Source: an archaeon
GTDB lineage: Archaea > Iainarchaeota > Iainarchaeia > Iainarchaeales > CSSED10-239
Direction: 5' to 3'
DNA: 8,544 bases
Assembly (NCBI GenBank): GCA_035387745.1
Contig: DAOOON010000027.1
Location: forward strand, 1 to 8,544
A model generated the notes under the pieces. The model saw only the letters and a program-made list of their open reading frames with translations. It was not told the DNA's origin and did no database searches. Positions within the stretch are counted from its first letter, which is position 1; every line of letters begins with the position of its first letter. Below are positions 6,243 through 6,797 of this stretch, in pieces. The translations under genes were made by a program, and so were the position numbers.

Positions 6243-6797
6243 TCACTTTGTATTTATTCTAAACCAAACATAGTAGGTTCCAATAACTATAATAATAAGG
6301 AAAAGCCTAAAAAGGAAACCATGCACAAAATTTGCAAAAGACAAATTGTCGTTTATTATTATTAGAGAAGTAACAACTATTCTTGTAAGATTGAAAAATA
6401 TTATGACTGGAATTGCAAGAAGCGCGCCAAATATCCTTTTCTTTAGAGAAATACCTACTGACGAGAGGATTGCAGAAATTAGAAGAGAAAACTCCAAGAT
6501 GCCTGAACAAAGAAAAGAAATCACTATCGGCTCTTTTAGATTAGACACAAGAATGCTTGAAGTCTTAGTAAGAGAATCAAAAACAAAAGAATTACTTGCA
6601 CCAAAAACAGATAATAACACACTAGAAAAAAAACCAAAGAAATAATTTATATAGCCAGAAACTGGAGACTTAGCAAACAACAAATAAGAAAGAGAAAAAA
6701 CTAAAATAAACAAAAACAAGAAAAAAAGAGCTTTCTTGTGCTCTTTCTTATTTTTTAAATCTTTTTTAAATTTTTTAAAAAAAGAATTAGATTTCAT
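6243..6797 (-). CDS. Minimal exosortase/archaeosortase-family membrane protein (184 aa)
   Basis: It is polytopic, with about 5 hydrophobic segments. It has the motifs PIVISFLCSGILEF (Cys97, codon 6507..6509), FFNLTRIV (Arg139, 6381..6383) and FVHGFLFR (His159, 6321..6323). The CSG ... NxxRI ... H order and the 42-residue Cys-to-Arg spacing match the conserved core of the exosortase/archaeosortase family (Exosortase_EpsH, exo_archaeo). Haloferax ArtA has essential Cys173 and Arg214, 41 residues apart. Its ATG overlaps the rps8e stop (ATGA at 6794..6797). Confidence 0.65.
   Translation of the reverse strand: MKSNSFFKKFKKDLKNKKEHKKALFFLFLFILVFSLSYLLFAKSPVSGYINYFFGFFSSVLLSVFGASNSFVFDSLTKTSSILVSNLKEPIVISFLCSGILEFSLLISAILSSVGISLKKRIFGALLAIPVIIFFNLTRIVVTSLIIINDNLSFANFVHGFLFRLFLIIIVIGTYYVWFRINTK

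Follow-up and report, generated by a model that had tools for sequence, protein, structure and literature searches.

A gene for a small membrane protein resembling the archaeosortases lies in this archaeal locus, and it raises two questions: is the protein a genuine member of that family, and on which substrate would it act? The window, that is, the whole stretch of DNA analysed, is 8544 nt long, with 30.6% G+C. A sequence-only reading had located there an open reading frame of 184 codons, with the core residues of the family. The frame is present, with an ATG start; its strand, absent from that reading, is the minus strand. Its features are the following.

6243..6797, minus strand: gene of a small archaeosortase-family protein of an Iainarchaeota clade, 184 aa, assigned from the TIGR04178 model, homologues and an AlphaFold2 model
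6729..6797, minus strand: Lys-rich N-terminus, residues 1-23 (sequence; helix 3-15 in the model)
6507..6509, minus strand: codon of the putative catalytic nucleophile, Cys97 (LCSG) (aca, reverse complement tgt, hand-checked)
6381..6383, minus strand: codon of Arg139 (N136-x-x-R139-I), the putative catalytic arginine (tct, reverse complement aga, hand-checked)
6306..6323, minus strand: codons of His159 to Arg164 (H-G-F-L-F-R), the putative catalytic histidine and a second conserved arginine (alignment)

The enzyme and its putative catalytic residues

That this is a real gene follows from its recurrence: 22 public contigs encode the identical 184-aa protein, and there are 37 clusters of homologues, 180-191 aa long and 46-90% identical, basic N-terminus included. 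We shall call it the sortase. Translation and inspection of the codons (that of His159, at 6321-6323, reads atg, reverse complement cat) bear out the three motifs announced from the sequence, CSG with Cys97, NLTRI with Arg139 and VHG with His159, together with a Cys-to-Arg spacing of 42 residues. The N-terminus is as basic as had been stated: residues 1-23 are rich in lysine, residues 8-22 read KKFKKDLKNKKEHKK, and K11 and K15 are conserved in at least 90% of the family. Under the positive-inside rule it is presumably cytoplasmic. About five hydrophobic segments had been counted, and the same number comes from Kyte-Doolittle hydropathy and from the AlphaFold2 model (based on 33 homologues; pLDDT 85, pTM 0.75), which has five long helices, at residues 17-42, 46-64, 100-111, 118-149 and 152-183, and a beta-hairpin at residues 69-93. 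Judged by this model the sortase is a polytopic integral membrane protein, its orientation being that expected from the positive-inside rule. It is without a solved structural relative in the PDB, by fold as by sequence: a fold search with the model reached no better E than 1.3, with TM scores below 0.3, and a profile search of PDB sequences gave zero matches.

Membership of the superfamily was proposed from the motifs, and the signature model agrees. TIGR04178 (exo_archaeo) matches the sortase with 37.8 bits for a cutoff of 23 (E = 1.7e-09), over residues 93-182 and model positions 3-95 of 97. Public databases (JGI, NCBI) label it 'exosortase/archaeosortase family protein'. The Pfam model PF09721 (Exosortase_EpsH) gives 13.2 bits, under its gathering threshold of 25.7; a precomputed match to it is present on several homologues. 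On its sequence, then, the sortase is a member of the exosortase/archaeosortase superfamily. A literature search returned nothing linking Iainarchaeota or Diapherotrites to archaeosortases.

Could the protein have kept the fold and lost the function, its motifs being the relic of a membrane protein that is non-catalytic or foreign to sorting? The Pfam score under threshold leans that way, and small archaeosortases as a group are without biochemical data. Conservation speaks strongly against it. Residues C97, R139, H159, E102 and N136 are invariant in 33 aligned close homologues. When 1.84 billion representative proteins were searched with a profile, 484 relatives (clusters) appeared at E <= 1e-3, 159 of them at E <= 1e-10; in 143 of these, aligned and at most 50% identical to one another, N136, R139 and H159 are present in 100% and C97 in 99% (142/143), while E102 is kept in 97%. 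The cysteine, arginine and histidine thus stand in the most conserved columns of the family, as had been supposed, and conservation of these three residues and of the asparagine at this level is the pattern produced by selection on an active site. We therefore find the relic highly improbable. Cys, Arg and His are the triad suspected of catalysis in the whole family (Haft, bioRxiv 10.1101/2023.06.07.544157), and in the ArtA enzyme of Haloferax, Cys173, Arg214 and Arg253 are essential by mutagenesis (PMC9263693). The sequence-only reading overlooked a conserved H-x-x-x-F-R motif, which brings in a second arginine, R164, conserved in 90% of the 143 relatives and replaced by lysine in a further 9%. 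ArtA (Haloferax volcanii HVO_0915) and the sortase share the signature domain of the superfamily. Their Cys-to-Arg spacings are 41 (C173/R214, PMC9263693) and 42, and each has a later conserved arginine, R253 in ArtA and R164 here, the equivalence of the two being a supposition.

Size and place within the family

With 184 residues and some five helices, the sortase is short beside ArtA, whose model has about 270 positions, and it had been described as unusually small, perhaps minimal. This description has to be abandoned. At least 11 curated NCBIfam subfamily models have between 150 and 199 positions: ArtD and XrtM (150 each), ArtE (153), ArtB (156), XrtH (158), pacearchaeosortase (167), XrtX and XrtY (168 each), XrtF (174), XrtG (187) and heimdallarchaeosortase (199). 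The median length of the best 149 of the 484 distant relatives is 183 aa. As far as sequences tell, 184 aa is an ordinary size for this branch of the family. Ten of these 149 were scanned; they match the signature model only, reaching no subfamily cutoff, which indicates that small archaeosortase-like proteins form a large population in metagenomes, unclassified for the most part. XrtM, ArtD, XrtG, ArtB, ArtE, XrtH and XrtX, of comparable length (150-187 positions), have the same C-terminal Cys/Arg/His signature region, and the cognate signals of the short subfamilies (for example the VPXXXP-CTERM of ArtB, after its model name archaeo_VPXXXP) were not encountered here.

One of these named subfamilies might nonetheless include the sortase as a poorly scoring member. 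Partial matches exist, with XrtM (TIGR04300) at 29.3 bits, ArtD (TIGR04175) at 19, XrtG (TIGR03110) at 16.6 and pacearchaeosortase (NF033505) at 14.1, and they fall 4- to 8-fold under the respective cutoffs of 125, 125, 102.75 and 80. The ArtA model, TIGR04125, is absent from the matches at E <= 10. Assignment to ArtA, ArtD, XrtM, XrtG or pacearchaeosortase is ruled out on score, and we leave this explanation next to no weight. The closest parallel is pacearchaeosortase, which is likewise small (167 positions), likewise from DPANN archaea, and matched by its curators to one large protein, the putative S-layer protein NF033506; a literature search found the name 'pacearchaeosortase' in none of the papers it covered. 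Its hosts are Pacearchaeota, while that of the sortase belongs to Iainarchaeota, and the large protein encoded near the sortase, described below, fails the NF033506 model (PACE-CTERM-PROT; best E = 3.3, for one tail).

Since no named-subfamily cutoff is reached, the sortase represents a clade as yet without a name, which occurs in Iainarchaeota (Diapherotrites, DPANN), and 'novel subfamily', as first suggested, is a fair term. By its sequences, the clade is one of proteins of about 180 aa typical of these archaea. GTDB species genomes with relatives of the sortase are those of Ca. Forterrea multitransposorum (phylum Iainarchaeota), Ca. Iainarchaeum, 'Ca. Diapherotrites' and archaeal MAGs. A curiosity among the relatives is P0084, with 1102 aa, the first 182 of which form a small-sortase domain with the Cys/Arg/His core, followed by some 900 residues. 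Two origins are conceivable, a fusion of enzyme and substrate or a read-through in gene calling.

The neighbourhood of the gene

The search for a substrate leads to the flanking genes, three of which matter here.

6794..7189, minus strand: gene of ribosomal protein S8e (TIGR00307 and PF01201 matches)
4607..4993, plus strand: 128-aa soluble coiled-coil protein (in 40 of the 40 loci covering the region, with 59-81% identity)
1712..4414, minus strand: 900-aa secreted protein, the candidate dedicated substrate (orthologues near the sortase; composition)

The stop of the S8e gene and the start of the sortase gene share four nucleotides, ATGA, at 6794-6797, so that their co-transcription is likely. 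The order S8e then sortase is kept in every locus with called genes. Overlap and order together suggest that a ribosomal protein and a surface-processing enzyme are expressed together. In the loci inspected, the sequence of genes is Hef/XPF nuclease, a small gene on the opposite strand, S8e, the sortase, then a variable set of small genes, one to several in number (six in locus L044), and finally the gene of a large secreted protein (800-1050 aa), beyond which many loci have the L3-L4-L23-L2 ribosomal operon.

In the window the large protein is encoded at a distance of about 2 kb. In every informative locus an orthologue of the large protein (800-1050 aa) is found 1-6 kb from the sortase, and all sortase loci with enough downstream DNA contain it. 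Three loci are without it (L015, L021 and L027), and in each of them less than 1 kb of contig remains beyond the sortase. The converse was explored by scanning metagenomes with an alignment of seven closer large-protein sequences: the sortase lies 1.2-5.7 kb upstream in nine of the nine large-protein loci that have enough upstream DNA. An apparent exception, L045, begins downstream of the position that the sortase occupies in its near-identical twin, L044. Between the two, the 128-aa coiled-coil protein is always present, on the opposite strand; it is more conserved than either of them, and it has no significant family match.

How much weight should such an association bear? By itself, little: these small genomes as a rule keep the genes near ribosomal operons in the same order, so that synteny alone is weak evidence. 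Hence a sober alternative: the sortase would be a real archaeosortase whose substrates lie elsewhere and carry another signal, the 900-aa protein would simply be anchored by a helix, and their adjacency would reflect the gene order of the ribosomal operon. The whole region, with Hef, the Cgi121-like gene, S8e and the L3-L4-L23 operon, is indeed syntenic across the clade. Against this stands the fact that intervening genes vary among clades, while the sortase and the large protein persist together. Taken with the evidence of the tail, to which we shall come, this makes us regard the alternative as rather unlikely, with enough in its favour to be kept in mind.

The same neighbourhood holds several genes of more local distribution. 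The sortase is immediately followed, on its own strand, by two Lys-rich proteins, of 262 aa (5444-6232, minus strand) and 146 aa (5002-5442, minus strand); they have no family match, and only the clade to which the window belongs has them (19 loci and 9 loci, respectively). At 7295-7873, plus strand, there is an open reading frame of 192 codons, with no family match, where related genomes have a Cgi121-like (KEOPS) gene of 170-171 aa. Its homologues were found in the four closest contigs only, and it may be a divergent replacement of the Cgi121-like gene. In one relative, L009, an Avd-like accessory gene and a reverse transcriptase gene (RVT_1), at 446-2600, lie immediately upstream of the Cgi121/S8e/sortase block, and resemble a diversity-generating retroelement. 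At the other end of the window (5-1657, minus strand) is encoded a Cys-rich secreted protein of 550 aa with repeated C-x-x-C-rich modules, whose signal peptide, MSKKGQ/VALEVLVVISVIII, is of the archaeal pilin-like type (class III). Its paralogues, of 526-926 aa, come after it in the longer contig L001, and they are found in 18 loci.

The candidate substrate, its tail and the proposed pairing

The 900-aa protein is acidic (pI 4.05), rich in Ser, Asp, Thr and Asn, and has 26 N-x-S/T sequons. Family searches returned weak Ig-like matches and nothing else. It is probably a major surface or S-layer-like protein. Its two ends are the parts of interest.

4334..4414, minus strand: Sec-type signal peptide, MEKNIMRKEYLVSLLFLVAIVISGVYA, read from the translation, with a putative cleavage site before DP
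1784..1801, minus strand: S872-A-F-F-S-L877, the candidate motif of a sorting signal (orthologue alignment)
1715..1771, minus strand: C-terminal transmembrane helix 882-897, then RKR 898-900 (hydropathy 2.72 over 19 residues)

The tail encoded in the window has the sequence KSPL-SAFFSL-KNAG-SILLGIVVLIVLFLVF-RKR, and a stop codon follows. The consensus of the motif in the family is L-[ST]-[GA]-F-[FL]-[ST]-L. All 22 of the 22 distinct C-termini have the same layout, in which L-[ST]-[GA]-F/L-[FL]-[ST]-L/F is followed by a spacer, a helix and a Lys/Arg cluster, the spacer comprising 4-8 mostly polar residues and the hydrophobic helix about 20 residues. In 15 orthologues with an overall identity of only about 29% the motif can be aligned, each position being restricted to two similar residues. 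This restriction argues against substrates located elsewhere, and so does the result of a search for other tail-bearing frames, none of which was found within +/-10 kb, in roughly 50 loci of flanking DNA. Among 138,367 residues from the other open reading frames of these loci the motif pattern turns up a single time, a figure that illustrates its rarity only, because the pattern was derived from these same tails. A further 25 clusters of homologues of the large protein, all labelled hypothetical, carry the motif or close variants of it (for example TGFLIF and GGLLIF). The profile search that gave these 25 clusters produced no tail-less or differently tailed homologue; all known homologues carrying the tail, they offer no contrast with proteins devoid of it.

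What kind of signal would this be? It resembles, by its residues, a PGF-CTERM deprived of its proline: the G-F core of the motif recalls the P-G-F of the ArtA system. There is a difference in layout, a polar spacer of 4-8 residues preceding the helix here, where PGF-CTERM and PEP-CTERM motifs abut it (bioRxiv 10.1101/2023.06.07.544157). Five of the tails were compared with the curated CTERM models; none has a significant match, and PGF-CTERM is not among the matches at all; those seen, to LPXTG, Heimdall-CTERM, PEF-CTERM and PACE-CTERM-PROT, are sub-threshold and driven by the helix. A profile of the tail (about 40 aa) found nothing at E <= 1 among 5.8 billion proteins, being too short for significance there. 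This lack of fit to any curated sorting domain favours the alternative of a merely helix-anchored neighbour, as do the long cytoplasmic extensions that some lineages have past the helix. The basic cluster is followed by 40-60 cytoplasmic residues in the Forterrea/Iainarchaeum clade, an arrangement atypical for a sorting signal; a non-terminal (internal) signal is nevertheless processed by ArtA. The cognate signal of the sortase had been called undefined from the sequence; a concrete candidate for it now exists on the neighbouring protein.

We are thus led to propose, on gene neighbourhood and protein architecture, a candidate pairing of the sortase with the large protein. We hold it fairly probable that the sortase is a catalytically competent membrane cysteine endopeptidase/transpeptidase, dedicated to its large neighbour. 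By analogy with Haloferax ArtA and its PGF-CTERM S-layer glycoprotein, the large protein would be exported by Sec and held transiently by its C-terminal helix. The sortase would recognise the GF-type motif at the outer face of the membrane; Cys97 would attack it, with the assistance of Arg139 and His159, and the helix with its basic tail would be removed, leaving a mature surface protein attached to a membrane lipid. The likeness extends to the proposed substrate, which, as the S-layer glycoprotein processed by ArtA, is large, acidic, rich in sequons and secreted, with a motif, a helix and a basic C-terminus.

The two systems would differ in their economy. That of the sortase looks one-to-one and gene-linked, with one enzyme for one dedicated target if the analogy holds, whereas ArtA has from 1 to 52 predicted substrates per genome, nine of them in H. 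volcanii. Dedicated one-to-one systems are recognised by a regular gene neighbourhood and not by many tagged proteins (Haft, bioRxiv 10.1101/2023.06.07.544157). The sortase may, for all that, have further substrates, or belong to a one-to-many system. The more distant small relatives, which lie in other contexts with a neighbouring protein lacking such a tail, count for substrates located elsewhere. For four of them (P0040, P0041, P0043 and P0051) contexts are heterogeneous or contigs short, and no general neighbourhood rule can therefore be drawn. P0043, in locus L031 (2627-15074), sits between a gene for a type IV pilus/T2SSE-type ATPase and a protein of 2829 aa without a C-terminal helix, a context from which other branches of small sortases may be thought to serve different systems.

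A broader reading takes the pairing to the whole phylum. It sees in Iainarchaeota a universal and dedicated two-part envelope system, set beside ribosomal clusters, where an archaeosortase of about 180 aa, translationally coupled to S8e, would process a single S-layer-like protein with a new class of signal; the 128-aa protein would perhaps be a third component. The signal in question would be a proline-less [ST]-[GA]-F-[FL]-[ST]-L with a polar spacer, internal in some lineages, where it precedes a cytoplasmic tail of 40-60 aa. To this reading as a whole, new signal class included, we lend tentative credit, a little short of an even chance.

With reference to the family at large, the understanding of these enzymes is unchanged, since the catalogue already contains small archaeosortases whose dedicated targets are S-layer proteins. 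The family-level label was in the databases; the analysis adds a concrete candidate substrate, with its signal, in the neighbourhood of the sortase. Should the pairing be true, the catalogue of archaeosortases would gain one more subfamily/signal pair, and annotation a new NCBIfam pair. It would also be useful in choosing minimal enzymes for structural work. Finally, for a DPANN phylum without cultured members, it would identify the probable main protein of the envelope and the way in which this protein is anchored.
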